From: Patescibacteria group bacterium
Lineage (GTDB): Bacteria; Patescibacteriota; Patescibacteriia; PEXW01
Direction: 5' to 3'
Length of the DNA: 64,000 bases
Assembly: GCA_041671325.1 (NCBI GenBank)
Contig: JBAZBR010000003.1
Coordinates: 132,506-196,505 of the forward strand
The notes beneath the pieces were generated by a model. It searched no databases, had not been told where the DNA came from, and saw only the letters and a list, made by a program, of their open reading frames with translations. Shown one piece after another: positions 21,698-47,237 of this stretch. Each line of letters begins with the position of its first letter. The first letter of the stretch is position 1. The translations under genes and the position numbers were made by a program.

Positions 21698-22526
21698 TTT
21701 TTTTCATCTGTATTTTTAACCAGTCCGGCTGTTTGTCCTGGCAGTATTTGTTGCCTAACGCCCAACAAAAATTAAAGATTGAGGCCAGCATCGAATAAAT
21801 TTCGTTATTTTCCACGATAACACCAACGTGGTTTTTTTCGGAAAAGGTTACAAAGGACGCTTTGTTTTCGTAGATGTTTATTTCCGTGGCAAATGGGTAA
21901 AGCGTGTGATCGATAAAAATTATTTCCGTTAGTTCATTGGCTTGGTAGCCTTTCATGTAATCAAGTGCCTGGGCATTGTCAGGAATGATGACTTTTTCAA
22001 AAATCTGGAGTTTTTTTCTTTTAGGGGCGTAGTAATTCGTATTCCAGTCTTTAAGGTACTTTGCGTACCCAGCTACGTCAGAAAAAGTTAATAATTTTTT
22101 CTCCTTATTATCAATCAGCGTATCCTCAAGGACTTCTTTAATTCCATCCAAACCTTCAAAAAATCTAACACCCGGCTTGTTCATAGCCAATCGGTAAGCA
22201 GAAGCAATGCTATTAAAACTGGTTTTTAAAATGCGATCCTGCTGTTGGATTAATTTTTCCTGTTCTTCCAGGAGTATTTTAAACCGATCTGGAGGCTCCA
22301 CCATAAAGACTTTTTTGCCGCGTTCTTCGGTTTCCGTCACTAAGCCTTTGTGGGTTAAATCTTTCAGAATGTCATAGGTATTACCGCGCTTATAAGGCGT
22401 TTTAGGCAAGAGCTTGCCCATATTGACCTTGCCTAAAGAGAGCAGGGCTTCGTAAACCACGGCTTCTTTCTCTGAAAGGCCGATTTGGGTAAGAGTTTTA
22501 GCTAAAGAGGAGGCTATTTTTGGCAT
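21672..22526 (-). CDS. TrmB-family transcriptional regulator (paralog 3, 284 aa)
   Basis: IGLSEKEAVVYEALLSLGKVNMGKLLPKTPYKRGNTYDILKDLTHKGLV. Confidence 0.7.
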   Translation of the reverse strand: MPKIASSLAKTLTQIGLSEKEAVVYEALLSLGKVNMGKLLPKTPYKRGNTYDILKDLTHKGLVTETEERGKKVFMVEPPDRFKILLEEQEKLIQQQDRILKTSFNSIASAYRLAMNKPGVRFFEGLDGIKEVLEDTLIDNKEKKLLTFSDVAGYAKYLKDWNTNYYAPKRKKLQIFEKVIIPDNAQALDYMKGYQANELTEIIFIDHTLYPFATEINIYENKASFVTFSEKNHVGVIVENNEIYSMLASIFNFCWALGNKYCQDKQPDWLKIQMKKITPLSASN

Positions 22527-22747
22527 GTTTTTTAGAGTAAATTAAGCTTATTTGATGGGTTGAACCTGTGGATAACTTTATTTCAAACTAAAGATTAATT
22601 GACAAGAAAGCGTTATTACGTAATCAAGTTTAGCAAAAATAAAATATATTGTCAAATATATATGACATAATTATACATATAAATATTAATTATTTATGCT
22701 ATTAATATTAATAAATGACAAAATGATGTATTTTTTGGCACTATGAC

Positions 22748-22776
22748 TTGACAGTTTTTCAATATGGGTATATACT
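22748..22776 (+). promoter_or_regulatory. Consensus sigma70-type promoter TTGACA - 17 nt - TATACT
   Basis: Perfect -35 hexamer, 17-nt spacer, and a -10 of TATACT. Followed by ~500 nt with no ORF. Confidence 0.6.
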
Positions 22777-22789
22777 CCCTTGTTACGCT

Positions 22790-23290
22790 AGAAATGGTTA
22801 CCAAAGGAACTCCTGAACTTTGAAAAATGAATAGCGATAAATTCCACTCACCTTTAAAAAGCACTCGGGGTGAGCATGGAGAGAGCGCCTTCCCCCGCGT
22901 TTGCGGGGATGGCGAAAAGATAGCGAAAGCTATTTAGAGCTTGCTTATTAATTTATTATTCAAATGAATTTAAACCAATAAAAGGGACTCTCTCAAGTTT
23001 TTGAGCAGAGTCCCTTTTAATTTGGTAAATCTCCAGGGGTATAGAGAGGATCCGCCTTCGTCCCGCTTTACGCGGGACTTCGGCGGACAAAGAGAAGGAT
23101 TGAATAACCATAATAATCATTTACAGTCCTTATCTCTTCTCTAAACTCTTTTGAGAGAGAAAGAGTGAATAAATGTTCTTAAAAAACAAAATAAAAATTT
23201 GTTCTTAGTAATTGCTCTTTATTTGTTCTTTATATCAGCTGTTTGAAATTTTATTTCTGGAATTTTTGGAGAGAGAGATTGAAATAAGAT
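22790..23290 (+). ncRNA. Candidate non-coding RNA or long structured leader downstream of the consensus promoter; multiple perfect GC hairpins in AT-rich background
   Basis: Hairpins CCCCGC-gttt-GCGGGG, GGGACTCT...AGAGTCCC, GTCCCGC-tttac-GCGGGAC. No convincing ORF (the 103-aa and 76-aa ORFs are low-complexity). No match to the conserved motifs I checked by eye for tmRNA, RNase P or SRP RNA. Confidence 0.3.
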
Positions 23291-23450
23291 TTTGAACTTG
23301 ATTTGGCGAGTCGTAGTCGGGAATCCATAAGCTACGTTGAATGACGTGGCGCGGTTAACAAGATCACTAAACTCGCCCCAAGTGCGCGCCCTCATTACAT
23401 TTGTAGTGGGGGTTGCAGTTGGGAAACCAACAAAAAAAAGAAAAACAGCT

Positions 23451-23529
23451 CGAACCACAACGGTTCGGGTAGAAGATAAAACAAACCAAGTCCCATTTTG
23501 CTCAAAGCGAAGATGGGCGTGGAGGAACA
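23451..23529 (+). promoter_or_regulatory. Island module (a): palindrome CGAACC-acaac-GGTTCG + GGGTAGAAGATAAAAC + A-rich + AAGTCCCAT-hairpin-ATGGGCG + TGGAGGA RBS
   Basis: Conserved with modules at 24267, 26936 and 28547, with compensatory changes in both hairpins. Confidence 0.6.
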
Positions 23530-24159
23530 ATGAAAAATTTGAAATGGGTTCCTATTGTAATATGTAGGAGCCTAGAAATAATCTGTTGCATACCCTTATG
23601 GGTAGTGCAGCAGATAATAACCCGCCCCTTATTGGGGTGGAGAGTTCGTCGTACCGTCATTGACGGTAAGATTTCGTGTACGATGTCCAGAGGTTGTTGG
23701 GTTGAAAATCCAAACGGCCAGGACGTATATTCATTTGGTCCCCACGGAAACCCCGGGGACCAAATTCAACTCGTGTATCTTGGTGGATTGATTGGTTGGA
23801 GAATTTCTCCAACCAACCTCTCCACCTCCCCGAGGATGGAGCTGGAGGGAAGGAAGGGGTACCGTCGCGGCTACGAGGCCGCGATTACGGAATTACTGGG
23901 CAGCCTGACCGGCAGCTATTACCAGGAGGTAATAGGGCCGGGGGGATTTATAGAAGAGGGTCAGATGACCCTCAAGAATTTCTTGCAGGCCGGCTGGGCG
24001 TCGGCCTGCAATTACGACTATTCTTCCGAAAGCGCCTCTTTTAGAGGCGAGACGGAAGAATGCGTGGTAGAAGCCAACCACTATTCTGGTGGGTGGGATG
24101 ACGGGGTGATAAATATAGTCATCACCCATAAGGAGGCCATAAAGAAAGCCGCCGGCTAG
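23530..24159 (+). CDS. hypothetical protein (209 aa), GC-rich island ORF1
   Basis: ATG 5 nt after the GGAGGA of the conserved module. No known motif. Confidence 0.6.
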   Translation: MKNLKWVPIVICRSLEIICCIPLWVVQQIITRPLLGWRVRRTVIDGKISCTMSRGCWVENPNGQDVYSFGPHGNPGDQIQLVYLGGLIGWRISPTNLSTSPRMELEGRKGYRRGYEAAITELLGSLTGSYYQEVIGPGGFIEEGQMTLKNFLQAGWASACNYDYSSESASFRGETEECVVEANHYSGGWDDGVINIVITHKEAIKKAAG

Positions 24160-24178
24160 CACTGCCGTTCGGCTTCAT

Positions 24179-24226
24179 GAGGAAACAGGCGAGCTCGCAC
24201 GCTTGTCTGTTTCCTCTCTCAAATTT
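24179..24226 (+). terminator. Terminator GAGGAAACAG-loop-CTGTTTCCTC + TCTCAAATTT
   Basis: Perfect 10-bp stem. Confidence 0.65.
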
Positions 24227-24266
24227 AGCTTGTGGAAATTTTTACAGGCTGAAACATGGGAAAATA

Positions 24267-24357
24267 GCCCGGACCACAACAGTTCGGGCAAAAGATAAAA
24301 AACACAAAAAAACAAAGTCCCACATTGCATGATGTAATAGTGGGCGTGGAGGATGAG
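24267..24357 (+). promoter_or_regulatory. Island module (b): GCCCG-GACCACAACAGTT-CGGGC + AAAAGATAAAAAAC... AAAGTCCCAC-hairpin-GTGGGCG + TGGAGGA
   Basis: Homologous to module (a). Stem changes CCCAT/ATGGG -> CCCAC/GTGGG are compensatory. Confidence 0.6.
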
Positions 24358-24705
24358 ATGAAGCTAAATACACTTTTGGAAAGTCTCTCGTTACTTGGGG
24401 AATTATTTCCCCAAGGCCAGGACATCGTTGTTCTGTTGGGGGAGGCGTCCACATCCCTGCAACGGGATGTGGATATAGTTGAAATCTCGGTAGTCTCTCG
24501 GGAAGACTTTGGTAAATTCCAAAGTCTTCCCGCAAAGGAGTTTGGCACTGAGCCGTACACAGGCTCGGACGACTGTCAAACATGGACCCACTGCTTCAAA
24601 CGCGGTGGGTTCGTCCTAGTAGTTACAGGGTTCCATGCCGGCTTCGAAACCGGCGCGGACGAACAGAAGTGGGAGGGGGGTAGAATATATTACCTACCCC
24701 TTTGA
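24358..24705 (+). CDS. hypothetical protein (115 aa), island ORF2
   Basis: Start placed at the ATG 5 nt after GGAGGA, by analogy with the other modules. Confidence 0.55.
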   Translation: MKLNTLLESLSLLGELFPQGQDIVVLLGEASTSLQRDVDIVEISVVSREDFGKFQSLPAKEFGTEPYTGSDDCQTWTHCFKRGGFVLVVTGFHAGFETGADEQKWEGGRIYYLPL

Positions 24706-24722
24706 AAGTTCGGAGCACTTAG

Positions 24723-24762
24723 ACAGGATGCGTTATGCACATACGCATCCTGTCACTTTTTC
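24723..24762 (+). terminator. Terminator ACAGGATGCGT-tatgcacat-ACGCATCCTGT + CACTTTTTC
   Basis: Perfect 11-bp stem plus a T tract. Confidence 0.7.
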
Positions 24763-24819
24763 AGAATTCTTCAATTGTTGGAGATTTCTGAAGAAGAAAA
24801 CTGGTAGAAAGGAGGATTA

Positions 24820-25749
24820 ATGAACTATCGGTTTGGAATTCTTGATCCGCGGCAGATTCCGGCGGCGGAAGAAAACAATGCTAAGGTGCTCGGTCCGAGT
24901 ACCTTAGGGGTTGAAGTCACCGTGCCGGCACTTGCCACACGGTGCGGGCTGGGGAATATCGATCCCCAGCACTCTGACGGCCAGGTTGACTTGGCCGCCA
25001 TCGAAGTTGCTCTGACGGCAGAATTGCAGCCCGACGGAGCGACTTTGGTTACCAACCGCGCCGACTTGGATGCGGTTGGTACTATGGCGGTATTTTCGCT
25101 CCGCGCCAAAGGCGTCGAATTGACGCCGGAGACGCTTGAGCGGTTCCGCCTCATTGCCGAGGCGGACAAGTTCGCCCGCGGGGGTTGGTCTGGTCCGCGG
25201 CTGCTGCCGACCGTCGAACAGCTGTTCGACGATTCGATGGCGTCGGCCGATACCGACAGCCGGCTGGCGCCGATGTCAGCCGCGATCGGGGATTTTAAGA
25301 TCCCGATAGCGGATCGGGTCGCCTGGATGGAGCACTGGCTCCTGACAGGCGAGGAGCCGGACGGGTACCGCGATCGTTGGCTCGCGGAACGCCGGCAGAT
25401 CGCCGAGGCCATCGCCAACGGCTCGATGAAAGTCGAGCTGGCGGCTGACGGCCAAATTGCCACGGTGGTTAGCACCCACCGTGCAGCTACGACGCTGGGT
25501 TACTGCTTAGCGCCGGTGGTTATCGCCCTCAATCCGGAGTTCCGGGTGCAGGGCAGTGAGGCACACCCGAAATTTACGGTGTGCCAATTCCAGGTCGGCC
25601 ATGCCGATCTGGTCGCGGCGAAGAAAGATCTCGCCGCCAAAGAAACTGGGTGGGGCGGTAGTCCCACCATCATTGGATCTCCTCAAGGAGTCGGCAGTTC
25701 GCTGACCCTGGAGGAGGTTATTGAGGTGGTTGCACGCCATCTCAAATAG
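24820..25749 (+). CDS. hypothetical protein (309 aa), island ORF3
   Basis: RBS AAAGGAGGA. GC-rich, Ala/Leu-rich. No recognisable domain. Confidence 0.6.
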   Translation: MNYRFGILDPRQIPAAEENNAKVLGPSTLGVEVTVPALATRCGLGNIDPQHSDGQVDLAAIEVALTAELQPDGATLVTNRADLDAVGTMAVFSLRAKGVELTPETLERFRLIAEADKFARGGWSGPRLLPTVEQLFDDSMASADTDSRLAPMSAAIGDFKIPIADRVAWMEHWLLTGEEPDGYRDRWLAERRQIAEAIANGSMKVELAADGQIATVVSTHRAATTLGYCLAPVVIALNPEFRVQGSEAHPKFTVCQFQVGHADLVAAKKDLAAKETGWGGSPTIIGSPQGVGSSLTLEEVIEVVARHLK

Positions 25750-25758
25750 TATTTTTTT

Positions 25759-25796
25759 GGGGAGCCGTGTGTGTTTGCACAAACACGCGGCCCCCC
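25759..25796 (+). terminator. Terminator GGGGAGCCGTGTGTGTTTG-ca-CAAACACGCGGCCCCCC
   Basis: Long GC stem with a palindromic centre, followed by TCTTTATCC. Confidence 0.65.
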
Positions 25797-25893
25797 TCTT
25801 TATCCGAATTCATCATTACTACGAATTTGTACGAATTCGTAAAAACAAATGGTGGGTTCAGAAAAAGTAGCCATAAATATTTCTCTTCCCACA

Positions 25894-25982
25894 CCGGGTC
25901 AGATCCTTGCGTTGCATCATTACCTAATGGCGAAACGCAAGATTGCTCTTTCCAATCTGACCCGCTGTAGAGAGAGAAAAAA
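25894..25982 (+). ncRNA. Structured RNA element copy 1 (leader of ORF4): CCGGGTCAG [inner hairpin CTTGCGTT/AACGCAAG] CTGACCCG + CTGTAGAGAGAGAAAAAA
   Basis: Outer 8-9-bp stem and tail are conserved with 29538-29620. The inner stem differs in sequence but stays paired (covariation). Confidence 0.5.
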
Positions 25983-26007
25983 TAAGACAAGAAGAAAGGA
26001 AGTAAAA

Positions 26008-26793
26008 ATGGGCATTGGGGAATTTATGTTTGAGGGGCTAGAGTGGTTGGGCCATGACGAAGATGGCCCGGACCCTGTGGCGAGTATCGAGTGCCACGAT
26101 CTTGCAAAGCCGGGAGGGTTTTGTGGGATCAAGGTGGAGAGAACCCATGATGGAAGCGTATACAATGTATTTTCATACGGGTTCAGGGATCATTATGATC
26201 CCGAGAAAGCAGCTCAAATAAATGAACTGATTGGCGGGGATCGGATTATTTTGTTCCGTCCCCAATGGACTCTTAACAACGCCTTCACGGAAACGTGCAA
26301 GGAATTGTTAAGGAAAGTCAGGGTCGGCTGGAAATGGCATCCAGTCGAAATCATCCTATCTCTCCGGGAGCTTGCGCTAGCTCCCATGTCTAGTTCCGAG
26401 GGAAACCAGCTTTCCTGGAAAAGATGTTTCCCGGTTTCCACCTATTTTAAAAAGAGGTGGGATAAAGTTGACGAGTTATGGGCAGTGTTGGAAGGAAACA
26501 CCCAACTCGTCGAGATATGGATCAAGGCGATCCAAGAAAGCGTCATCTTGATTGGGGGATTGGAAAAGTATAGCTGGGTGGACGCCAACACCCGTCTTGA
26601 ATGGGTCGGGTTTCGGGAAGGGAAGAATGGAGCAATCCTGGGTCGAACTGACGATGGGAAAATTTCCTTCCCGGAAAGGAGAGGAATTATTCCCAAGGAT
26701 GGCGACAGGTGGCTGGTTGCAATCGTTGGCACCAATCTGAAAGGAAGCGTGAACTTCCTGCGGTTGGTGTCTAATAAGGAAATAAGTTGGTAA
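26008..26793 (+). CDS. hypothetical protein (261 aa), island ORF4
   Basis: RBS AAAGGAAG, 6 nt before the ATG. Confidence 0.55.
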   Translation: MGIGEFMFEGLEWLGHDEDGPDPVASIECHDLAKPGGFCGIKVERTHDGSVYNVFSYGFRDHYDPEKAAQINELIGGDRIILFRPQWTLNNAFTETCKELLRKVRVGWKWHPVEIILSLRELALAPMSSSEGNQLSWKRCFPVSTYFKKRWDKVDELWAVLEGNTQLVEIWIKAIQESVILIGGLEKYSWVDANTRLEWVGFREGKNGAILGRTDDGKISFPERRGIIPKDGDRWLVAIVGTNLKGSVNFLRLVSNKEISW

Positions 26794-26801
26794 TTTTTTC
26801 C

Positions 26802-26929
26802 GGGCCACGTGAGGAGGGCCCATTGTCCGGCGCAAGCTGGATAAAAAGTCTTGGTTTGTCTGCACGGGCATACCTTGATCTCCTCTCTCTTTTCTACCTC
26901 ATAGCAATTTGTGTGAGGTGGAAGTGGAG
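26802..26929 (+). repeat. Direct repeat DR1 (~127 bp), beginning GGGCCACGTGAGGAGGGCCC right after the ORF4 stop
   Basis: About 88% identical to 27689-27815, which lies after the ORF5 stop. Confidence 0.8.
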
Positions 26930-26935
26930 AAAGAA

Positions 26936-27025
26936 AACCGCCCGCGCCATTACGGTTCGGGTAAAAGATACAAAAACAAACAAAGTCCCATCCCGCATCA
27001 GGCGAGGGTGGGTGAGGAGGAAGAA
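26936..27025 (+). promoter_or_regulatory. Island module (c): AACCG-CCCGCGCCATTA-CGGTT + CGGGTAAAAGATACAAAAAC ... AAAGTCCCATCC-hairpin-GGGTGGG + TGAGGAGGA
   Basis: Same architecture as modules (a) and (b). Confidence 0.55.
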
Positions 27026-27685
27026 ATGAGAACCGAAAAAGGTTGGCCGTCGCAGGCCGACAGCGGCTCAGAAAAGGGCTGCTTAGTTTTTAAGGAAGGG
27101 GGCGAAACGACGACAACTTACTTCGATAGCTTCGAAGAGGCGGTCGCTGTTTTCCTGGGTCTCTACAACGAGTACCCAGGAATTATTTGGCGGGGGGATT
27201 GTTGGAAACCTGATCTTAACCACCGCTGCAGCGTGCCCCACAAGCCGTGGGGCAGCAACGGCGGTAGGTGGTACAATCCCGAGTATGGCCGAGAAGTAAT
27301 CCTTTATTACAAGGACGGCCGCCGTGAGGGATGGCAGAGTCCGTGTTGCGACAAGACCGGCCGTTTCTATCGCGGCGCGTTTGTACGTCAGACCATGCCG
27401 CATATCGTACCAGGATATGGGTACATGCAGCGACGCAAACCACGCCGTGACGACCTTCTCCCTGCTGGGACGGCACGGAGTGATTGGGCATACAATAACC
27501 CGGATCCCGTGAACATTGGCGGGGTGATCGTGGATCAGCGGGAGATCAACCGCATCCGGAAATTGACCGAAGCGCTCCCAACCCACATCACCACGTGGGA
27601 CGCTTCGGGGAGCTACCTTTATTTGGAGGAAATTGTTTGGGGTGATGAACCCCAGCTAATGTTTGAGAAGGCGGTTAGACAGTAA
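27026..27685 (+). CDS. hypothetical protein (219 aa), island ORF5
   Basis: Start at the ATG after the module's GGAGGA. W/Y/R/G-rich with several Cys. Confidence 0.55.
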   Translation: MRTEKGWPSQADSGSEKGCLVFKEGGETTTTYFDSFEEAVAVFLGLYNEYPGIIWRGDCWKPDLNHRCSVPHKPWGSNGGRWYNPEYGREVILYYKDGRREGWQSPCCDKTGRFYRGAFVRQTMPHIVPGYGYMQRRKPRRDDLLPAGTARSDWAYNNPDPVNIGGVIVDQREINRIRKLTEALPTHITTWDASGSYLYLEEIVWGDEPQLMFEKAVRQ

Positions 27686-27688
27686 TTC

Positions 27689-27815
27689 GGGCCATGTGAG
27701 GAGGGCCCATTGTCCAGCGCACGCTGGATGAAAAGTCTTGGATTGTTTGCACAAACATACCTAGACCTCCTCTCTCTTTTCTACCTCATAGCATTTGTGT
27801 GAGGTGGAAGTGGAG
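27689..27815 (+). repeat. Direct repeat DR2 (~127 bp), second copy
   Basis: See DR1. Substitutions are mixed transitions and transversions. Confidence 0.8.
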
Positions 27816-27883
27816 ATTGTTCCATACACCGGACGACGCGGTAAACCGGTCGAGCCATTAATCAGCCTAAAGGAGGTGAAAAA

Positions 27884-28309
27884 ATGGCAAAGTACGTTAT
27901 CGCCCAAGAGGGCGATCGCGTGGGAGAGGTGAAATCCACTCTACGGGCTGAAATTAATCTCGGCCTGAAGAAGGGGTATGCCGGTTTCCTCCAGGAGAAA
28001 GAGGAAGTAATCTCTTTCTTGAAGGAGGAGTATCGGCAGGCCTTGGCCGCCGGTCTGAACTTTATCCCGGTCGGGATACAGCAGACCGACTTAGTGTACG
28101 CATACCCAGTCGAGGGTGGCGTGCACGCCGAGGCTGAACCGTCGTTGACGCTTTTCGCCGACAGGAATCCGTTGTACTCAACGGAGTCGGAAGAAGAGTG
28201 GCAGGCGATGGTGGAAGATCTCGCCTCCAAGCTGGCCGAAAAGTTCGACCAGTTCCGGGTGTACGTTACGTACATTCGCGTGGAGGTGAAGATTTTCCAG
28301 AAGGCCTAA
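27884..28309 (+). CDS. hypothetical protein (141 aa), island ORF6
   Basis: RBS AAAGGAGGTG. Confidence 0.6.
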   Translation: MAKYVIAQEGDRVGEVKSTLRAEINLGLKKGYAGFLQEKEEVISFLKEEYRQALAAGLNFIPVGIQQTDLVYAYPVEGGVHAEAEPSLTLFADRNPLYSTESEEEWQAMVEDLASKLAEKFDQFRVYVTYIRVEVKIFQKA

Positions 28310-28472
28310 GGCCTTCTATGTCTCCCACAAAACCCCGGCACCGAGGGTTCATATCGGGCGGCTGTAGCATAAGACAGCCTGAATTGGAGGCTCGAAAAAA
28401 GCAATAGTTCGGATGGCCGAATATTGATAATTCGAGTTGAGCCAATATCTTACAAAGTTTTTGGGAAACGGT

Positions 28473-28508
28473 TGCGCGCACTATTGCATCCGTTTCCCTC
28501 TCTTTTTC
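28473..28508 (+). terminator. Terminator GGGAAACGG-loop-CCGTTTCCC + TCTCTTTTTC
   Basis: Perfect 9-bp stem. Same TTTCC(T)C-TCTC ending as the 24179 terminator. Confidence 0.65.
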
Positions 28509-28546
28509 AGCTCTTAAATCGAGGGTTGAAAGTGGAGAAAAAATAG

Positions 28547-28600
28547 TCCAAACCACTACGGTTTGGGCAAAAATAAAAAAAGTTATTCCAGGAGGAAAAG
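28547..28600 (+). promoter_or_regulatory. Island module (e): CCAAACC-actac-GGTTTGG + GCAAAAATAAAAAAAG + GGAGGA
   Basis: The palindrome covaries with module (a): GAACC/GGTTC here becomes AAACC/GGTTT. Confidence 0.55.
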
Positions 28601-29437
28601 ATGGATAGATCACAAAAGTTTTGGACGGGTAACTCAGTCAACCCGGTGGCGGAGCATTATCGTCGGGTGATTGAAGACAATCGGCAGAAAGAGGCCGAGT
28701 TGGTGGCTCATGAAGCAGTTCTTGCGGCGCATGGCCCCGAGTTTGCCGCTAAACAAGGACTTCGGTTCCTTGGAACTCGACGGCGTTATCCGGAGGGGAC
28801 GAGGATCGAGAAAGATCCCAGGCTCTCATGGATGACTCCGCCAAAGAGTGTCATCGAACTGGGGTTTGAGGTCGCTCCAGCCGGCACCGCTGGCTGGAGG
28901 GTGCGTGGAAAGCTTGCCCCATGGGTTCAACTGTCGGGCAAGCAATCTTCCGGCTGGATCATCTGGCTGGAAGAAAAGGATATCGCTCGTTTGAGTGAGA
29001 TTTGGAGGAAACCCGATATCCCTCCGGTTGAGGAGCGCTCAGTTCCGCAACCAAACGGAACTCTAACAAATTTTGGAGGGGTATTTCGGGAATGTGGCTA
29101 TTCGAATAATAAAGAATATTTTGTCATAGCCACAGACGGAATCCTCCGGAACCCGGATATAACCACCAAGGATGAGAAGCTGTGGAAGGTGGTAGCGGGT
29201 ACTGACCTGGCGCTCTATCACGCCAAGTCATTTCAGCATGCCGAACATGTTTTTGAAGTTCGGCATTTGCCGGTCGGCGGTTTGACCGAGGCCCAAAAGG
29301 AGACGGTAAACCGTCTGCAAGAGGTGATCGCCGAAAAATGGGAAGGGCGGGTAACTGGAAACCACAATCTAAGCCCTTCCATGGGCGATGGCTGGGGACT
29401 AACGGTCCCGACCTATCGCCGTATTGGAAACCTATAA
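28601..29437 (+). CDS. hypothetical protein (278 aa), island ORF7
   Basis: RBS CAGGAGGAAAAG. No known motif. Confidence 0.6.
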   Translation: MDRSQKFWTGNSVNPVAEHYRRVIEDNRQKEAELVAHEAVLAAHGPEFAAKQGLRFLGTRRRYPEGTRIEKDPRLSWMTPPKSVIELGFEVAPAGTAGWRVRGKLAPWVQLSGKQSSGWIIWLEEKDIARLSEIWRKPDIPPVEERSVPQPNGTLTNFGGVFRECGYSNNKEYFVIATDGILRNPDITTKDEKLWKVVAGTDLALYHAKSFQHAEHVFEVRHLPVGGLTEAQKETVNRLQEVIAEKWEGRVTGNHNLSPSMGDGWGLTVPTYRRIGNL

Positions 29438-29460
29438 ATTGTTCAATTAAGAGGAGCTCT

Positions 29461-29491
29461 GCATGCACAATGCATCTCCTCTCTCTTATCC
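29461..29491 (+). terminator. Hairpin GAGGAG-ctctgcatgcacaatgcat-CTCCTC + TCTCTTATCC
   Basis: Same terminator + TCTCTT architecture as the other island intergenic regions. Confidence 0.5.
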
Positions 29492-29537
29492 AGTTCTTGA
29501 TTCCATCGAGGATTGAAAAAGAGTTTATCTCCCGAAG

Positions 29538-29620
29538 CCGGGTCAGGTGTTACGTGTTTTTGTTTATTCAGAAATACGCAACACGTTTTCTCTCCACTGA
29601 CCCGACTTGGAGAGAGAAAT
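29538..29620 (+). ncRNA. Structured RNA element copy 2 (orphan, at the island's right edge): CCGGGTCAG [inner GTGTTACGT/ACGCAACAC] CTGACCCG + ACTTGGAGAGAGAAAT
   Basis: See copy 1. Followed by the terminator at 29637; it is not followed by an island gene. Confidence 0.45.
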
Positions 29621-29636
29621 TAATTACTATTAAGTC

Positions 29637-29662
29637 TAAAAACGACCGTTTGAAATCAGATG
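29637..29662 (+). terminator. Rho-independent terminator AAAAACGACC-gtttgaaatcagat-GGTCGTTTTTT
   Basis: Perfect stem plus a T tract; marks the right edge of the GC-rich island. Confidence 0.65.
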
Positions 29663-29747
29663 GTCGTTTTTTATTTGACTTATTTTTGGAATGTAATTAG
29701 GATAATACAAAACAAAAGAAAATCGTGAAACAGAGGAGGTTTGAAAA

Positions 29748-30014
29748 ATGTTTGTTGCCATCTTTATCTTTTTAGGCGCCTTGGGATTTTTAGCTTCATT
29801 TGTTACGACAAATCGAAAAAAGAGAATTGGATTTCTTGTCGCGGGAATGATTTTCTGGGTTTTAAGCGTAGTGTTTGGTTGGCTGCAATATCAGTACGAA
29901 AAGAAACAACCCCAGCGTCATTTTATCGGGGAATATCAGCAAAATGTCGAGCAACATTCCTTTGCTTGGCTAAACTTCGATGGCGTTGAAACCGAACCGA
30001 TGAACAACGCTTGA
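29748..30014 (+). CDS. small membrane protein (88 aa, 2 TM helices)
   Basis: RBS AGAGGAGG. TM segments FVAIFIFLGALGFLASFV and GFLVAGMIFWVLSVVFGWL. Confidence 0.5.
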   Translation: MFVAIFIFLGALGFLASFVTTNRKKRIGFLVAGMIFWVLSVVFGWLQYQYEKKQPQRHFIGEYQQNVEQHSFAWLNFDGVETEPMNNA

Positions 30015-30266
30015 TTCGCCAAATCCTTTCAAAGATATTTTTAAAAAGAGCGGGCTTAACCACCTACTCTTTTTTATTTGACTAAATAAAGCTTAAGGCG
30101 TAGATTAATTTAAAACAAAATGAAATAGAGCAAAGCTTGAAAATAACAGCTATTTTAATTGTTTCACATTTAGGGCTGAAGAGTTTGAAGTCTAAATTGC
30201 TTAGCAAATTCCGAGAGGTAAAAAACCAAGCCGAGAGGCTATACCAGAGATGGAAAGGAGATCTAA

Positions 30267-30677
30267 ATGGAAATAACACGTATTGATTGCGAACGCTTCT
30301 TTAGTGGTTCACAAGAGATCGACCGTAAAAGATTGATTATTGCCTTAGTTCTTTCAACGGTTGAACATATGGCGTGGACTATCAAGAGAAAAAGCCATGG
30401 ATGGAAGAGTGGCCAAAGGATTCTTAGCATTGCGTTTGGCGAGTTAGAATTCGTTTGGGAAGCTGATGATAATTCTGTGTGTGGTCGATTTTACCACAAA
30501 AGACAATATACTAGGTGGTGGGGGTATTCAGGTGAGGTAATTCCGGCTAGTTTAGTCTCGACTATTTACGAGCACCTATCAGAAATAGTTGAAAAAACGG
30601 CAGAGGCATTCCCACGGCTTGGCATCATTGAGCACTTTCAGTTTTTTATGAACCAAGCACCAGCCAAGTCAGTTTAA
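30267..30677 (+). CDS. hypothetical protein (136 aa)
   Basis: RBS AAAGGAGA, 6 nt before the ATG. Confidence 0.5.
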   Translation: MEITRIDCERFFSGSQEIDRKRLIIALVLSTVEHMAWTIKRKSHGWKSGQRILSIAFGELEFVWEADDNSVCGRFYHKRQYTRWWGYSGEVIPASLVSTIYEHLSEIVEKTAEAFPRLGIIEHFQFFMNQAPAKSV

Positions 30678-30748
30678 AATTATATAGTATTTTTTTGAAA
30701 AATCCCGTTCTTACTATGAGAATGGGATTTTGTTATATCTTTTTGTGA

Positions 30749-30803
30749 ATCTCACCCGGTTCCGCCTTGGCGGAGCCGCCCCCTCCTATACAGGAGAGGG
30801 GGT
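30749..30803. repeat. REP-like element E1: CTCACCC + GC-rich hairpin TCCGCC-tt-GGCGGA + CCCCTCC-tataca-GGAGAGGGGG
   Basis: Family members lie at 31825, 32222, 47041 and 47111, in both orientations. Confidence 0.6.
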
Positions 30804-30804
30804 A

Positions 30805-31797
30805 TTACAATGCAAGTTTTATTAATTTAGTAATTAATTCTTTGTAAGGAATACCAGAAATTTCCCAGAGTTTTGGGTAAAGAGAAATTGGCGTAAAACC
30901 AGGCAAGGTGTTAATTTCATTCAAATAGACTTTTAAATTTCTATCTAATAAAAAATCAACCCTGGCTAAGCCGCGACAGCCAGCTATTTTATATGCCGTT
31001 AGAGCAATAATTTGGATCTCCTTAATTTTTGCTAAAGGCAATTTCGCGGGTAATTCAAAAGATGCATGGTTATCCAAATACTTATCGTTATAATTATAAA
31101 AATCGTTATGCGGAATGACCCGACCTGGCAAGGTAACTTTATAATTTTTTTCAGAATTTCCCAAGACTGAAATTTCGATTTCTTTACAATTCTTGATGGT
31201 TTCTTCGATGACAATTTTATTATCAAACTTTTTGGCCTTATTGATAGCTTTTAATAGCAATCTGTTTGATGCAACTTTGGAAATTCCGACTGAAGAGCCA
31301 GTTCTAGCTGGTTTAACAAAAAGCGGATATTTTAATCTATTAATCTGAGATAGGTTTTTTGATGTTATGTCATTTAAGATAACGAATTTTGGTTTGGGTA
31401 ATCCAGAAGTTGACATTAACTGATTAAATATTCCTTTATCAAGACAAATTGTGGAACTTGGTACATCAGCGCCAACATAAGTGACGCCTAGGGTTTCAAA
31501 AAAGCCCTGGATTGTTCCATCCTCCCCGCCTTTGCCGTGTAAAACCGGAAAAGCCACATCAATCATGGCGGGAATTTTATTCAAATCAGCATTTTTCAAT
31601 TTTGAAAATTGTTTTTTTAAAACTGAATCTAAGGCATTATTGGCCTGCCAGATAATTCCCTTTTTATCAATCCAAAATTCCTGGACTTGGAATTTGGTCC
31701 GATCAATATTCTTAATTATCCCTTGAGCTGACCATAAAGAAACCTGGTGTTCGGGAGATATACTGCCAAAGAAAATGCCAACTTTTATTTTTTTCAT
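30805..31797 (-). CDS. ddl: D-alanine--D-alanine ligase
   Basis: N-terminal VGIFFGSISPEHQVSLWS; an ATP-grasp region with the Ddl-typical EETIKNCKEIEISVLGNSEKNYKVTLPG and C-terminal ...GLARVDFLLD. Confidence 0.85.
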   Translation of the reverse strand: MKKIKVGIFFGSISPEHQVSLWSAQGIIKNIDRTKFQVQEFWIDKKGIIWQANNALDSVLKKQFSKLKNADLNKIPAMIDVAFPVLHGKGGEDGTIQGFFETLGVTYVGADVPSSTICLDKGIFNQLMSTSGLPKPKFVILNDITSKNLSQINRLKYPLFVKPARTGSSVGISKVASNRLLLKAINKAKKFDNKIVIEETIKNCKEIEISVLGNSEKNYKVTLPGRVIPHNDFYNYNDKYLDNHASFELPAKLPLAKIKEIQIIALTAYKIAGCRGLARVDFLLDRNLKVYLNEINTLPGFTPISLYPKLWEISGIPYKELITKLIKLAL

Positions 31798-31824
31798 AGC
31801 AGAAAAGATACTTATAAATTGTTA

Positions 31825-31885
31825 ACCCCCTCTCCCTCTGGGAGAGGGTACGCGAAGCGGGGGTGAGGGTTACTCGGAAATTAAT
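31825..31885. repeat. REP-like element E2 (inverted orientation): CCCTCTCC-ctctgg-GAGAGGG + GC segment + GGGTGAGGGTTACTCGGAAATTAAT
   Basis: Reverse-complement architecture of E1. The tail matches E4. Confidence 0.6.
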
Positions 31886-32214
31886 CGACTAATAATTTCC
31901 AAGATATCCTCAGGATTTTTCTGGAGGTCATTGGTCCAGACTCGGACTACTTTATAACCGCATTCCTTGAGATAGGCATCTCTTTGCTTATCCTTGGTTA
32001 TTTGAACTGGATCTGCATGCCCACTGCCATCTAATTCAATGACTAACCGTTTTTCCCGGCAACAAAAATCAGCGATGTACCTACCAACTGGGAATTGTCG
32101 ATGAAACTTTAAGCCAAGAAAGTTTCTATTACGTAAATAAAACCACAATTTCAATTCATGGGGATTTTGCGTCTTTCTAAGCTTGCGAGCTAAAGGTGTT
32201 AATTCTTGTTTCAT
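31870..32214 (-). CDS. DUF559 / very-short-patch-repair-like endonuclease domain protein
   Basis: ARKLRKTQNPHELKLWFYLRNRNFLGLKFHRQFPVGRYIADFCCREKRLVIELDGSGH is the characteristic DUF559 sequence. Confidence 0.75.
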   Translation of the reverse strand: MKQELTPLARKLRKTQNPHELKLWFYLRNRNFLGLKFHRQFPVGRYIADFCCREKRLVIELDGSGHADPVQITKDKQRDAYLKECGYKVVRVWTNDLQKNPEDILEIISRLISE

Positions 32215-32221
32215 GCTTGAT

Positions 32222-32338
32222 CAACCTCACCCGGCCTTCCTGCCCGTCACCCGCCCGACAGCTTCGCTTCCGAAGCGGGCGGGTCGCTACGCTCAGGCGT
32301 TGCAGACGGGTGGCCACCCTCTCCTACGAGGAGAGGGG
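32222..32338. repeat. REP-like element E3 (long form): AACCTCACCC + CCCGCCCG-acagcttcgcttccgaag-CGGGCGGG + ... CCCTCTCC-tacgag-GAGAGGGG
   Basis: Same termini as E1 and E5, with an expanded internal perfect hairpin. Confidence 0.6.
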
Positions 32339-32343
32339 ATAAA

Positions 32344-32883
32344 TTATTTTATATGTTTTAATCCTTGCACCAAAATCGTGACTTTTCTTTCCCGATCATG
32401 GTCGAGTTCCACCAGCATAATTTGTTGCCAATGGCCTTTGACTAATTTGCCATCTTCGATAATTAAAGTTACCGAGCAATGCAAAAGCATGGCTTGGGCA
32501 TGGGCATGGCCATTAATGCATTCATGGACGATACCGCAGGAATCTGGGGTGCAAAGATGCGTATCTCTTTTGCCACCTGGATTCCGGACATCCCTGACGT
32601 CATTATGTTTGTAATCAGCATCTGGGTGCGCAAAGTTATCCAAGACTTTGGAAAGGTCGTGGATATAGCCCAGTTTTTCCCTGGGGCCGATCAAATTTTT
32701 TTCGTCTTCGTTCACCCAAATGCTGGCAGTGGTGTGGTGGGATTGGATGGTTACTGTTCCGGTAATCACCCCAGTTTTTTTGATGAAAGCCTCAACTTCC
32801 TTGGTTAGGTTCAAAAATTCCTGACGATGGTGGGTCTTGAGGCTTAAATGCTTGGTTTGGGCAAAGGCTGATAATTTTTCCAT
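32344..32883 (-). CDS. YjbQ/UPF0047 family protein (secondary thiamine-phosphate synthase-like), with an internal insertion
   Basis: HHTTASIWVNEDE and ...KHNDVRDV...GHAHAQAMLLHCSVTLIIEDGKLVKGHWQQIMLVELD match YjbQ family signatures. Confidence 0.6.
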   Translation of the reverse strand: MEKLSAFAQTKHLSLKTHHRQEFLNLTKEVEAFIKKTGVITGTVTIQSHHTTASIWVNEDEKNLIGPREKLGYIHDLSKVLDNFAHPDADYKHNDVRDVRNPGGKRDTHLCTPDSCGIVHECINGHAHAQAMLLHCSVTLIIEDGKLVKGHWQQIMLVELDHDRERKVTILVQGLKHIK

Positions 32884-33598: not shown

Positions 33599-36500
33599 AT
33601 GCCAAAAGCTAAAAGAAGAAAATCGAAGAATAAAATAACAAGGACTAAAAAGCTTTTTAATGTTTTTGAATTTTTTAAGCATAATTTAAAGCAATCAGCC
33701 GGCATGGCCGTGATTTTTTTGGTTTTTGGAGTTTGGATGCTTGTGCAGGCGCAAAATCCTGAAGCGCCAATCTACCAGGCCAAGCCAGCGACTTGCTCTG
33801 GTTGGCAGGCACCTGACCAAGCCAAGGCAATTAACCTGATGGCTTCGGCTGGCCGAGAGGATTTTTCTACGGAAAATTCAGCATATATTTCCAATGTAAA
33901 TTTTATTGCTAATCAGAATAATAACGATCTCAAAGTCAATTTAACTGATTCGCAAACCATACTCAGCTGTTCTGGCTTTACCTTGCCAGATAACTTGCCA
34001 AAAAATGGCCGTTTAGTTTCTAATAAATTGATAGTTTCTTTGGCTGCTAATGGCTTTACGGAAAGTGAAGATGTTTTAGTTTTACAATACAGCCTGGATG
34101 GTAAGACTTGGCAAAAAATTGATTCGTTTGCGATCACGGATTCCATCAGCAATGCCACGCATGGTGATTTTTGGCAGGTAGAAATTCCAAATTTTAGCCT
34201 CGACCAAGTTTCCAAGCTACAATTCCGGGCGGATTTCCAAACCTTGCCTTCCGACGAAGTTTCCACGGTCTTGTTTGACGGCGTGAATTTGGAATTGGTC
34301 GTGGATAAGCCGTTATCTGGTAAACCTGCTGATTTATCAAAGGACATCATAAAAATAAACAAGACAACTTTTAATAAGTTTGAAGATCCAGTCATTACTT
34401 TAGAAACTGAAAAAAAATCTAGACTTGATTTTTTGGGCTTTGATGGCACCCAGCGAAAAATTGAAGAAGTGAGCATGATTGATCCAAGTGGCCAGGAAAT
34501 TATCCCAGATTTTGAAACTGACAAGATTGTGCAAGGTTCAAGCACGTATGACGCCTATAAAATAAAAACCCAGAACTATAAACGGCCGGGGAAATACCGA
34601 GTGGAATTTACCGTAATTCAGGATAATAACCAAGATGTAATAACCCGGGAGTTTTATTGGGGGGTTTTAGTAGTGAACTCGGATAAGTCTGTTTATCATC
34701 CGGGTGAAACCGCTTCTATCGGCATGGCGGTTTTGGATAGTTTCGGCAGTACGCTCTGTGATGCCAAGGTCGATTTAAGCGTTGCCGCGCCAAACGGTGA
34801 AGTCAAGACATTTTCAACCGACGATAATAGCGTAGAGAGGTCTGCAAAATGCGGAGCCCATACAGTCACCAATTTGCCGGATTACAGCGCCAAATATGAT
34901 ACTTCTGACGAAGGCGAATATACCCTAACCGTAACTTCAACAACAAAAGAAGGCGTGAATACCATTTCGGACAAGTTTTTCGTCAAACCGATTATTCCTT
35001 TTGACGTGATTCGCGATACGCCGACCCGAATTTATCCGGGCGCTGAATACGATACGAATTTAATTGTCACTCCCCAGCAAGATTATACCGGGACTTTTGA
35101 AGATTTTGTGCCGGATAATTTTAAAATCCTGACGGTCAGTAATTCTGGGAAAACCGAGATATTAAATAACGGTAAAATCAAAATTTTATGGAATGTCGAT
35201 TGGCAGGCGGGCAAGCAATATGTTTTAAGCTACCATTTTGATCCGCCAAAGATAAACCCGGCCATTTTTACGGTCGGGCAATTTAAAAGCGGATCCATTA
35301 ACCAGCAAGGTGAAGTTTTTGAAGAATATCGGCCCTGGCAGATTGCTTTTGACGCCACCTGTACTTCCAAAGCCACAGCTGCCTGGAACGTAGGTACGAC
35401 CTGGAATACCTGTGGGGCCAACGGGCCAGTGGCTGGTGATACCGTTATTTTAGCTTCAGGTTTTGTCGTATCCTGCCCAGCGACGATTACTTGTTCAGCC
35501 GCGACAATTACCGTGAACCAGCCATCCACGAGCAATGGTTTAATGCTGTCGGCCTCGACCAGCCGAGTGACCCTGACCGGCGCTTTGACTATTAATGGTT
35601 CGACTGGATCAAACAGCAAAAACGCTTCGATTGTGGTTGGTGCGGGTACGCTCGACGCGGCCAGTGTTTCCATGGTCACCACGGCTGGAACAAACCGGAA
35701 CGCGATATTAAGCGTCAGCACCGGGACCATTAACATTACTGGCAATATTTCTTTTTCTGGCGTTGCAGCGTTTAACAAATTGACTTTTTCCAGCACCGGT
35801 ACGCTCAACATTGGGGGGACAATTGGCACCGGCGGGACTTTAACGCCTAGCACTGGCACGGTGAATTTTAACGGCGGCGCGGCACAAACCCTGGAAAGCA
35901 CGTACACCTATAACAACGTTACCATTACCAATACTTCCGGCAATGTGGCCACCAACGGCACCACCACCATTAACGGCAATTTAACCATGACTTCCGGCTC
36001 GCTGACTGGTACTGACAATATTACCGTAATAAAGAATGTAGTTTGTGGCGTGACCTGCGGGACAATCAGCCGTACCGGCGGCACCTTTACCCAGCAAGTC
36101 GGCGCCGCGCAAAATTTTGGCACCAATGTGGCCGTGGCCACGGATTGGACTTTCAATGATTTGGTGTTTGACCAGGGCGCGGCCGGATCATTCACCATCA
36201 CCACGTCAGCTACCGGTACGGGCGCGAATATTGTCAACGGAAATTTAAGCACCACCCTAACAACGGGAACCACCTTAACAATAGACAACAATACTAATGA
36301 TCGGATTTTTGACGTGGCTGGCAATTTTACGGTTGGCGCGAATACGGTTTGGAGCTCTTCCAGTGGTACCGCTTTAACTTCTTTTACCATCGGCGGGAGT
36401 TTTGCCAATAATGGGACCTTTACCCACAATAGCGGCACCGTTACTTTTGATTCAGCTGGAACCGGCAATACCGTCAATACCGCAACTTTTTATAATATTA

Positions 36501-46995: not shown

Positions 46996-47040
46996 ATTTT
47001 TTATCCTCTAAATAGAATAGAAGCAGAGATTGTAAAACTA

Positions 47041-47150
47041 ACCCCCTCGCCCTCTGGGAGAGGGGTAAGGGGTGAGGGTTGCTCGGAAATATTAATATTA
47101 GGTTAATCAATCAACCTCACCCTCAGTCCCTCTCCTATATAGGAGAGGGA
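47041..47150. repeat. REP-like elements E4 and E5 in inverted orientation, forming a ~110-bp composite palindrome
   Basis: CCCTCGCCCTCTGGGAGAGGGG...GGGTGAGGGTTGCTCGGAAAT // AACCTCACCCTCAGTCCCTCTCCTATATAGGAGAGGG. Confidence 0.6.
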
Positions 47151-47237
47151 GGAAGAAGATATAAAATAACCCCCAACCTTTAAGGGGGAATTTTAATCCA
47201 ATTATTAATAAATTAATTTTTTAAGTATACTGATTAC

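Follow-up and report, generated by a model that had tools for sequence, protein, structure and literature searches.

In the early mRNAs of phages such as T7 and SP82, hairpins that are processed by RNase III lie between the cistrons, each consisting of a duplex with an asymmetric internal loop. Polypurine segments that resemble the Shine-Dalgarno (SD) sequence reportedly act as 5' stabilisers of mRNA, as Hue and coworkers are said to have described in 1995 for SP82 and Agaisse and Lereclus in 1996 for STAB-SD. STAB-SD and the SP82 polypurine stabiliser appear as references 13 and 15 in the reference list of PMC5737220. Short stem-loops can also mark sites of gene exchange: in the hyperplastic regions of T4-type phages, the breakpoints of insertions, deletions and replacements of unrelated open reading frames (ORFs) fall at the modules of the promoter-early stem-loop (PeSL) cassettes, which implies homologous recombination between these modules (PMC2839356, Arbiol et al., 2010; PMC4122927, Comeau et al., 2014). 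Here we describe a small, previously undescribed family of hairpins of about 100-130 nt with covarying stems that is restricted to Patescibacteria. Two of its members lie in the 64,000-nt stretch analysed here (the window), which comes from a metagenomic contig of 210 kb in a Patescibacteria metagenome-assembled genome (MAG). Judged by analogy, the element appears most like a hybrid of the phage RNase III and 5'-stabiliser sites, in the anatomy of the RNA, and of the PeSL linkers, in its genomic behaviour.

The earlier note on this DNA had proposed two copies of a structured RNA element of about 70 nt, and direct reading of 25894-25979 and 29538-29619, both on the plus strand, bears out the two copies. 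The combined pattern CCGGGTCAG-N40-70-CTGACCCG-N5-GAGAGAGAAA has exactly these two matches in the 64 kb, both on the plus strand, and none over 100 dinucleotide-preserving shuffles. The size has to be revised: each copy spans about 100 nt (Table 1). The GA-rich tail GAGAGAGAAA is indeed shared by the copies but is not a free segment: its partner is a CU-rich arm (UUUCUCUUCCC / UUUAUCUCCC) that precedes CCGGGTCAG, immediately before the point where the unit had been taken to begin. The enclosed hairpins are, as had been claimed, unlike in sequence and nevertheless paired in the minimum free energy (MFE) fold (copy 1, CUUGCGUU/AACGCAAG; copy 2, GUGUU.CGU/ACG.AACAC). Each window copy folds with an MFE of about -40 kcal/mol (z = -6.1 and -6.2), a stability that 0 of 200 shuffles equalled.

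A covariance model (R1) made of copy 1 and its orthologue in a related genome, with copy 2 left out, recovers copy 2 (43.9 bits, E = 3.5e-8; copy 1 itself scores 129.8 bits) and finds no further credible copy in the window. A segmental duplication is not the source of the repeat, because the flanks of the two copies are not shared: the similarity extends only about 14 nt upstream, over a GGNTTNAGAAAAAG-like segment, and ends at the tail.

Each copy is one long irregular hairpin that comprises, from the base upward, a lower stem of CU-rich and GA-rich strands, a middle stem of 8-10 bp, an internal loop and a variable upper hairpin. The mismatches in the lower stem occupy identical positions in both window copies. 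The internal loop, which measures 12-13 nt in the window, is on the 3' side only and carries the motif CUCU(C/U)UCC, to which the earlier note had not drawn attention; below it, 22-25 pairs are stacked. Across the six family members introduced below, this loop is 8 nt long in one (L126_b) and 10-13 nt in the other five, its motif is the sole invariant unpaired stretch, and none of the six lacks this motif or the tail GGAGAGA. All members thus hold three conserved, mutually complementary segments, namely the 5' CU arm, the loop segment CUCUCUCC and the GA tail GGAGAGAG. The ends of the element read UUUCUCU... and ...AGAGAAA, and the sequence next to the tail, AAAAAAUAAG in copy 1 and UUAAUUACUA in copy 2, is rich in A and not in U. 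The GA tail resembles an SD sequence without a start codon at SD distance; in related genomes (loci L134 and L175), GGAGAGA serves as a real SD. A triple helix of the CU loop, the GA tail and the CU arm is ruled out by geometry, given that the whole middle helix separates the loop from the lower stem.

The family has six members in three MAGs: the two copies in the window, L126_a and L126_b in locus L126, and L132_a and L132_b in locus L132. An exact scan for the core pattern in one genome for each of 185,579 species yielded a single true relative, L126, from a Patescibacteria MAG; the other matches of that scan and those in metagenome contigs are chance occurrences in GC-rich coding DNA. L126_a is the orthologue of copy 1 and, like it, lies 3' of ORF3, the conserved gene upstream of copy 1, or of its orthologue; L126_b is located upstream of ORF3, at a site that is empty in the window. 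L132 was found through its ORF3 homologue and has the synteny of a big ORF and a TrmB-type regulator gene in common with the window. All six members fold alike (z from -5.6 to -7.9) and are in sense orientation to the flanking genes, three lie directly 3' of an ORF3 homologue, and four end 16-33 nt upstream of a genuine SD, copy 2 and L132_a not being adjacent to one. The window copies have the middle stem in common and differ in the upper stem, whereas the L132 copies share the upper stem and loop and differ in the middle stem (Table 1). Different helices have therefore been replaced in each lineage, with the pairing always kept.

MAFFT alignments of the six members misalign the helices; hence the covariation statistics come from five members whose lower and middle stems were registered by hand without gaps, an artificial GAAA loop connecting the two arms. 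L132_a was excluded, as a bulge of 1 versus 2 nt shifts its register. In this alignment, 89.6% of the cells pair and 6 of the 23 pairs are changed on both sides. The covariation score was reached by 0 of 500 column shuffles, with the caveat that related sequences can beat column shuffles, and sliding the partner by 1-3 columns lowers the pairing to 39-52%. The orthologous members copy 1 and L126_a are 93% identical, compared with 72.8% for the 1.2-kb block that includes ORF3, and their differences include one compensatory change from U-A to C-G. The claim of selection on RNA structure over sequence is thus strengthened by four extra members from two genomes, which have the same architecture and other helix sequences; across the family pairing was kept, with six doubly compensated pairs, where homologues without covariation had been named as a possible refutation. 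The element is a real, selected and lineage-restricted family of structured elements, with a function that is a matter of prediction only.

Covariance model R1, for which the two orthologues used are near-identical, is too specific for the whole family: it misses L132_a and matches L132_b on the wrong strand only. Beside ORF3 homologues in six other contexts the element is absent (L134, L135, L137, L143 and L144 are among the loci without it), so that it tracks the variable locus and not ORF3. Some of these relatives carry simpler structures. In L139-L142, about 150-200 nt after the ORF3 homologue, a reduced hairpin is followed by AAAAUCUCUCUCCUUAGCG, which holds the CUCUCUCC motif, without a GA tail; directly after the ORF3 stop codon of L143 and L134 there is a simple GGAGAGA...UCUCUCC hairpin. 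Such reduced or reordered hairpins may represent ancestral forms or relics of the element. The suggestion that the element is specific to its island holds insofar as it is confined to homologous variable loci, but such loci exist in at least three Patescibacteria genomes. In viral contigs, a scan for the core-helix pattern gave at least 120 chance matches and no real relatives, and a search for CTCTCTCC...GGAGAGAGAAA gave only short simple hairpins and arrays of CCCTCTCC/GGAGAGGG resembling repetitive extragenic palindromes (REPs), with no family members; blastn against phages returned low-complexity A-rich matches only. The whole window matches only three tRNAs in Rfam 15 at gathering thresholds, and positions 22500-31000, searched at E <= 5, gave chance-level matches only, namely a miRNA hairpin model (20.9 bits against a gathering threshold of 72) and cow-rumen-3 (19.6 against 86.7).

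Table 1. Features of the hairpin family and its locus (positions refer to the window) and middle stems of the family members
Feature	Position	Strand	Details
Sigma-70-like promoter	22748-22776	+	TTGACA-17-TATACT, 11/12; best of the region, divergent from the TrmB gene
ORF3	24820-25749	+	309 aa; conserved gene upstream of copy 1; DHH/DHHA1-phosphoesterase-like fold
Hairpin directly after ORF3 stop	25760-25797	+	GGGGAGCCGUGUGUGUUUG-cac-AAACACGCGGCCCCCC, then UCUUUAUCC; read from sequence
Copy 1	25880-25979	+	Fold, z = -6.1; 93% identity to L126 orthologue; covariance model
Copy 1, lower stem	25880-25893 / 25966-25979	+	UUUCUCUUCCCACA / UGUAGAGAGAGAAA
Copy 1, middle stem	25895-25904 / 25955-25964	+	CGGGUCAGAU / AUCUGACCCG
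Copy 1, upper hairpin	25906-25941	+	
Copy 1, 3'-side internal loop	25942-25954	+	AUUGCUCUUUCCA
ORF4	26008-26793	+	261 aa; ATG at 26008, SD AAAGGAAG at 25995-26002; downstream of copy 1
Type B module, first copy	26795-26930	+	Directly after ORF4 stop; 3' boundary of the swappable ORF4 slot
Type B module, second copy	27682-27816	+	Directly after ORF5 stop; 89% identical to the first, 887 nt apart
ORF7	28601-29437	+	278 aa, no family match; last GC-rich gene, copy 2 in its 3' UTR
Copy 2	29522-29621	+	3' UTR of ORF7, no ORF directly downstream; fold; covariance model
Copy 2, lower stem	29522-29537 / 29606-29621	+	
Copy 2, middle stem	29539-29546 / 29597-29604	+	CGGGUCAG / CUGACCCG
Copy 2, upper hairpin	29547-29584	+	
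Copy 2, internal loop	29585-29596	+	GUUUUCUCUCCA
Intrinsic-terminator-like hairpin and T-run	29638-29671	+	15-pair stem, then TTTTT TATTT; 17 nt after copy 2
Middle stem of copy 1, copy 2 and L126_a			CGGGUCAG / CUGACCCG
Middle stem of L126_b			CAGGUCGG / CCGACCUG; two double changes, G-C to A-U and A-U to G-C
Middle stem of L132_a			CUGCCGGGGAUG / CGUCCCCGGUAG
Middle stem of L132_b			CUGCUGAGAAU / AUUCUCAGCAG

The comparison of the window with L126 delineates what is exchanged at the element. Homology between the two loci runs through ORF3, the hairpin that follows its stop codon, and the element, and stops right after GAGAGAGAAAAA. Downstream of this point both the SD and the ORF are unrelated, with the 261-aa ORF4 in the window and an ORF of 304 aa in L126, and homology resumes at the stop codon with TTTTTCCGGGCC and a type B module, which is 88% identical in L126 (minus strand, 4690-4590). 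Copy 1 is, as had been noted, a leader of ORF4, and a non-coding one; its L126 orthologue stands in front of an unrelated ORF. At the end of the L126 island, a local alignment with cheap gap extension places L126 TGAAAAAGAGTTT|GAGAAGTTAATT against TGAAAAAGAGTTT|84-nt hairpin|GAGAAATTAATT in the window; L126 accordingly lacks exactly the hairpin, from stem base to stem base, without target duplication, and no flank is duplicated between the filled site (GAGTTT|ATCTCCC...GGAGA|GAGAAATT) and the empty one (GAGTTT|GAGAAGTT). The element has thus been gained or lost at two orthologous intergenic sites. Gene content differs between the window, L126, L132, L173 and L175, of which the last two are syntenic loci with the same layout of promoter, leader and GC-rich ORFans, other genes and other repeated hairpin modules. 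In these comparisons, the modules behave as conserved linkers between which ORFs are exchanged, and gain or loss of the hairpin itself is precise.

The two elements lie within a stretch of about 6.5 kb with 49-57% G+C (the island), in a genome of about 40% G+C, that contains seven plus-strand ORFs with good SDs, none of which has a match in Pfam, PHROGs or NCBIfam. The ORF3 product is a member of an extensive Patescibacteria family (784 or more homologues) without a Pfam domain; its AlphaFold model (pLDDT 90.6) matches RecJ2, NanoRNase A (NrnA) and pAp phosphatase in Foldseek, with E-values down to 3e-5. The G+C content of the ORF3 homologues, 53-62% within genomes of 31-44% and in several unrelated contexts, with L137 as an exception, suggests a horizontally circulating gene; no relatives of ORF3 were found in viral contigs. 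The hairpin directly after the ORF3 stop codon keeps its position in L126 with another stem sequence and shares the intergenic region with copy 1. ORF4 is an ORFan, for which the sole match among 5.8 billion proteins is ORF4 itself.

Apart from the sigma-70-like promoter at the head of the locus, a promoter scan of the region revealed no convincing promoter adjoining either element. In the simplest reading, the island is one long operon in which copy 1 separates the cistrons ORF3 and ORF4 and copy 2 belongs to the 3' UTR of ORF7, the last of the GC-rich genes; the strong intrinsic-terminator-like hairpin that follows copy 2, as the earlier note had observed, is probably the end of the operon. 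Two public gene calls run across the hairpins: one at 25849-26793, which extends ORF4 to 314 aa from an ATG that lacks an SD and spans copy 1, and one at 29470-29700, a 76-aa ORF that covers copy 2 as well as the terminator. The two calls are probably artefacts of annotation.

The start of the putative operon has a structured leader of its own (22748-23036 on the plus strand of the window; 6075-6300 in L132; 9860-9560 on the minus strand of L175; minus strand of L177), in which the promoter is followed by the conserved start of the transcript (GTTACGCTAGAAMTGG), by a segment of the GGAGAGAGCGCC type and by a terminator-like hairpin at 22975-23030 (AAAAGGGACUCU...AGAGUCCCUUUUAAUUU). The promoter and the first bases of the leader are kept in L132, L175 and L177, and the leader has no match in Rfam. 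This promoter-proximal unit of about 250 nt, divergent from the TrmB gene and kept as a whole in three or more genomes, is a candidate leader, attenuator or small RNA that would control the variable operon. Upstream of it, a protein of 860-1160 aa (18371-21697, plus strand, in the window), with neither a credible domain match nor a recorded Pfam match, invariably overlaps with the 3' end of the TrmB gene, which is convergent to it (21672-22526, minus strand), and the big protein, TrmB and the variable operon form a conserved three-part synteny in the window, L132, L173 and L175. In L132, a gene for a four-helix bundle of the bAvd / 23S-rRNA-IVP type (5519-5905, minus strand), which has no counterpart in the window, lies between TrmB and the variable operon.

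Other repeated modules occupy the remaining parts of the island. The type B module contains GGGCC...GGCCC and a CU/GA hairpin, UCUCCUCUCUCUUUUCUACCUCA...UGAGGUGGAAGUGGAGA, and a diverged version of the module is present at 28497-28545; the type B repeat probably explains why short-read (Logan) contigs break there. Type A leader modules (23433-23534, 24252-24361, 26925-27029 and, in part, 28540-28600) lie directly upstream of four island ORFs and are composed, in this order, of an A-rich tract, the hairpin CCCGAACC-acaac-GGUUCGGG, another A-rich tract, a GUCCCA...UGGGC hairpin, GGAGGA and the ATG. The first hairpin shows compensatory variants (such as CCAAACC/GGUUUGG) and the second has unrelated loops and inner stems, so that type A, on the strength of these variants, looks like another covarying RNA family. 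Outside the island, palindromes of the types CCCUCUCC-loop-GGAGAGGG and GGUGAGGG, REP-like and unrelated to the element, are found at 30775-30805, 31816-31849, 32316-32349 and 47039-47158; two of them bracket a gene for a DUF559 (Vsr-like) endonuclease (31870-32214), and similar arrays occur in an IMG/VR contig (viral locus L163). Four kb downstream of the island, and unrelated to the finding, there is a 2908-aa low-complexity ORF (33599-42325, plus strand) rich in Thr, Gly, Ser, Asn and Ala, with an N-terminal hydrophobic segment that possibly marks a surface protein.

We tentatively favour the explanation that the element is a cis-acting module for intercistronic mRNA processing or stability, in which an RNase III-type hairpin precedes an SD-like polypurine, and that it serves at the same time as a linker for the recombination of ORF cassettes. 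The modules lie on the sense strand of what would be a long polycistronic transcript of a variable, GC-rich and mostly ORFan operon beside a TrmB-type regulator gene. The irregular duplex of about 22-25 bp with its asymmetric internal loop would be a substrate for a double-strand-specific endoribonuclease of the RNase III type. A cut in or near the internal loop would leave the upper hairpin on the upstream cistron as 3' protection and would free the downstream RNA, in which the loop segment CUCUCUCC may pair with GGAGAGAG to form a 5'-terminal hairpin before the next cistron; alternatively or in addition, the product may expose a ribosome-binding polypurine that acts as a 5' stabiliser at the same place. 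At the level of DNA, the modules would be homology linkers at which ORF cassettes are exchanged, gained and lost, much as in PeSL cassettes. The proposed refolding would account for the conservation of two CU-rich segments that are both complementary to one GA tail, and for that of the loop motif, which is unpaired in the primary fold. For RNAs that start at the loop, a 5'-terminal hairpin of CUCUCUCC and GGAGAGAG is predicted in L126_a, L126_b and L132_b.

Like the phage processing sites (T7 R0.3-R1.3; SP82), the element has 20 bp or more of duplex broken by an asymmetric internal loop, is placed between cistrons in sense orientation and carries, shortly 3' of the putative cut and ahead of the real SD, a polypurine that resembles an SD but lacks a start codon. 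In sequence it is not similar to those sites, and cleavage is here a prediction only. To our knowledge, the T7 and SP82 sites have no equivalent of the CU-rich loop motif that is complementary to this polypurine. With PeSL cassettes the element shares the form of short conserved intergenic stem-loop modules, repeated in a variable region of ORFans in the same orientation, and the coincidence of ORFan replacement breakpoints with the module (from the GA tail to type B, between the window and L126). However, PeSL modules are composites of a strong sigma-70 promoter and a terminator, whereas the element has neither an adjacent promoter nor a U-tract; it is also larger and irregular, has the conserved CU loop and GA tail, and resides in a bacterial chromosome, not in a phage. 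An intrinsic terminator is ruled out, given that no U-tract follows the element and that the terminator-like site is separate from it.

Whether the element acts as RNA or as DNA is pertinent to this explanation, and a function at the RNA level is, overall, somewhat the better supported. All six members lie in sense, four of them shortly before a real SD, the sense strand folds better in four of the six, with a tie in one (summed MFE -271.7 versus -244.7 kcal/mol), every member has its conserved asymmetric loop on the 3' side, and L132_b has nine G-U pairs in sense; across the aligned stems, G-U pairs outnumber C/A mismatches by only 10:7 in favour of sense. Several points weigh against processing of an RNA, or against the confidence with which it can be proposed. 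For copy 1 the antisense strand gives the more stable fold (-48.3 versus -40.4 kcal/mol), and DNA-level processes can also maintain the complementarity of inverted repeats. The covariation reflects few independent events, as it comes from five sequences, of which copy 1 and L126_a are orthologues, with a hand-set register and the upper hairpin excised. We infer RNase III as the enzyme, the place of the cut and the refolding; the loop motif of copy 1 reads CUCUUUCC with only a weak refolded hairpin, and no cistron that could be stabilised lies downstream of copy 2. The element is present in only 2 of the approximately 8 intergenic regions of the island and the others carry different modules, so that it is no general punctuation mark. 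Finally, the precise presence or absence of the hairpin without target duplication fits a mobile or deletable palindrome at the DNA level equally well.

An element of the latter kind, that is, a mobile or recombinogenic palindrome resembling a miniature inverted-repeat transposable element (MITE), a REP or PATE mobilised by a Y1 transposase, or a single-stranded attC-like site, with the RNA structure as a by-product, is an unlikely explanation. It would account for the exact presence or absence of the 84-nt hairpin, for the member upstream of ORF3 in L126 that has no equivalent in the window, for the flanking of exchangeable ORFan cassettes in a same-orientation array, and for stable folds on both strands, while the lack of a target-site duplication is also seen in insertions of the IS200/IS605 and REP types. 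On the other hand, the island ORFs include no recognisable transposase, RAYT or integrase, the recorded Pfam matches within about 10 kb of ORF3 include no integrase, and the copy number is very low, with two in 64 kb, both in the island, and one related genome among those scanned. The sense orientation of all six members, the better folding of the sense strand overall and the fixed side of the loop motif are further difficulties, and inverted repeats bound by transposases normally conserve their sequence and do not covary. REPs and BIMEs (bacterial interspersed mosaic elements) are, like the element, intergenic and often intra-operonic palindromes that can stabilise upstream mRNA and are polymorphic between strains, but they are 20-40 nt long, occur in tens to hundreds of copies per genome, and have a conserved 5' tetranucleotide and a RAYT; an element of about 100 nt with two copies in 64 kb, at one locus, is not of this type. 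A MITE is ruled out by the lack of terminal inverted repeats with a target-site duplication in the comparison of the filled and empty sites. Integron attC sites are likewise imperfect palindromes that keep structure over sequence, and integron cassette arrays likewise hold promoterless ORFs of mostly unknown function, in the same orientation, in a variable array behind a single promoter; however, neither boundary of the element has the R'' (RYYYAAC) or R' (GTTRRRY) motif, which rules out attC, and an integron array is rejected for want of IntI or of any integrase in the recorded Pfam matches about 10 kb to either side of ORF3. The element, moreover, is present in only some intergenic regions, and each ORF has its own long structured leader. 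A related and improbable scheme, integron-like exchange independent of an integrase, would have the hairpins and the other modules serve as crossover or capture sites at a locus of conserved design (big ORF, TrmB, promoter and leader, variable ORFans), with a shared GC-rich gene pool shuffled between species, possibly via mini-circles, and the modules giving the captured ORFs their RNA signals.

At the RNA level, a translational switch or anti-SD regulator is rather unlikely. In such a regulator, the CU loop and the GGAGAGAG tail would pair alternatively with each other, with the real SD, or in trans with GGAGAGAG and SD sites of the operon, and thereby set ribosome access, as with the UCCCC motif of the icaR 3' UTR. 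In its favour, all members have the three mutually complementary segments, GGAGAGA is used as an SD in L134 and L175, and GAGAGAGA occurs in the window only inside the island locus, including the leader, and always on the plus strand; moreover, the loop of copy 1 is predicted to pair with the SD region of ORF4 if the 5' half is absent. There is precedent in the UCCCC regulators (icaR 3' UTR, RNAIII, RsaE), in which the anti-SD:SD duplex is a substrate of RNase III (PMC3868564). The element resembles these in its conserved C/U-rich loop motif complementary to SD-like purine tracts, but its complementary partner is in the same hairpin and the motif is in an internal loop. In the predicted full-length folds of copy 1 and L126_a, the SD and AUG of the downstream gene are unpaired, which makes masking of the SD unlikely; the long hairpin is far more stable than the alternatives and is favoured by the co-transcriptional order of folding, copy 2 and L132_a have no SD next to them, and the alternative pairing yields no distinguishing covariation because both partners are invariant. 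The suggestion of the earlier note that the element is riboswitch-like, a sensor of a ligand, temperature or the like that controls the downstream gene, finds little favour and appears very improbable. A conserved covarying structure in a 5' UTR with a conserved unpaired motif would fit a riboswitch, and its absence from Rfam means that it belongs to no already known class. But each of the six members is a single, near-continuous irregular hairpin without a multi-helix junction or pseudoknot, whose conserved unpaired part is a CU-rich octamer and whose helices can be replaced freely, even beside the loop. No expression platform is apparent, with no terminator overlap, no U-tract after the hairpin and a free SD; one member is located in a 3' UTR, ahead of a terminator and with no gene downstream; the downstream genes are unrelated ORFans, whereas riboswitches track a class of metabolic genes; and members come and go at orthologous sites. 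That the hairpins have no function, as remnants of duplicated blocks or chance palindromes, is hardly tenable. Other modules of the island are plainly duplicated, as the close similarity of the two type B copies attests, but the element copies have no flanks in common, their inner stems differ at nearly every position and still pair, no pattern match is expected by chance, two further genomes hold family members with compensatory changes, and the orthologue is more conserved than the adjacent gene. Covariation and conservation across genomes leave this possibility close to refuted.

Patescibacteria, or the candidate phyla radiation (CPR), have tiny genomes, and very little is known of their post-transcriptional control or of how they acquire genes. 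The more interesting object is not the hairpin but the whole locus, a conserved slot adjacent to TrmB that is filled with different GC-rich ORFans joined by covarying hairpin modules. It combines a covarying RNA family absent from Rfam with a site at which ORFans have been replaced between genomes, with the breakpoints at structured modules. The finding also corrects the public annotation, in which two 'hypothetical protein' calls run through non-coding hairpins. If the modules are indeed processing signals that double as linkers, they would be a chromosomal counterpart of the PeSL cassettes of phages and would give a hint at how episymbiotic bacteria trial foreign genes.

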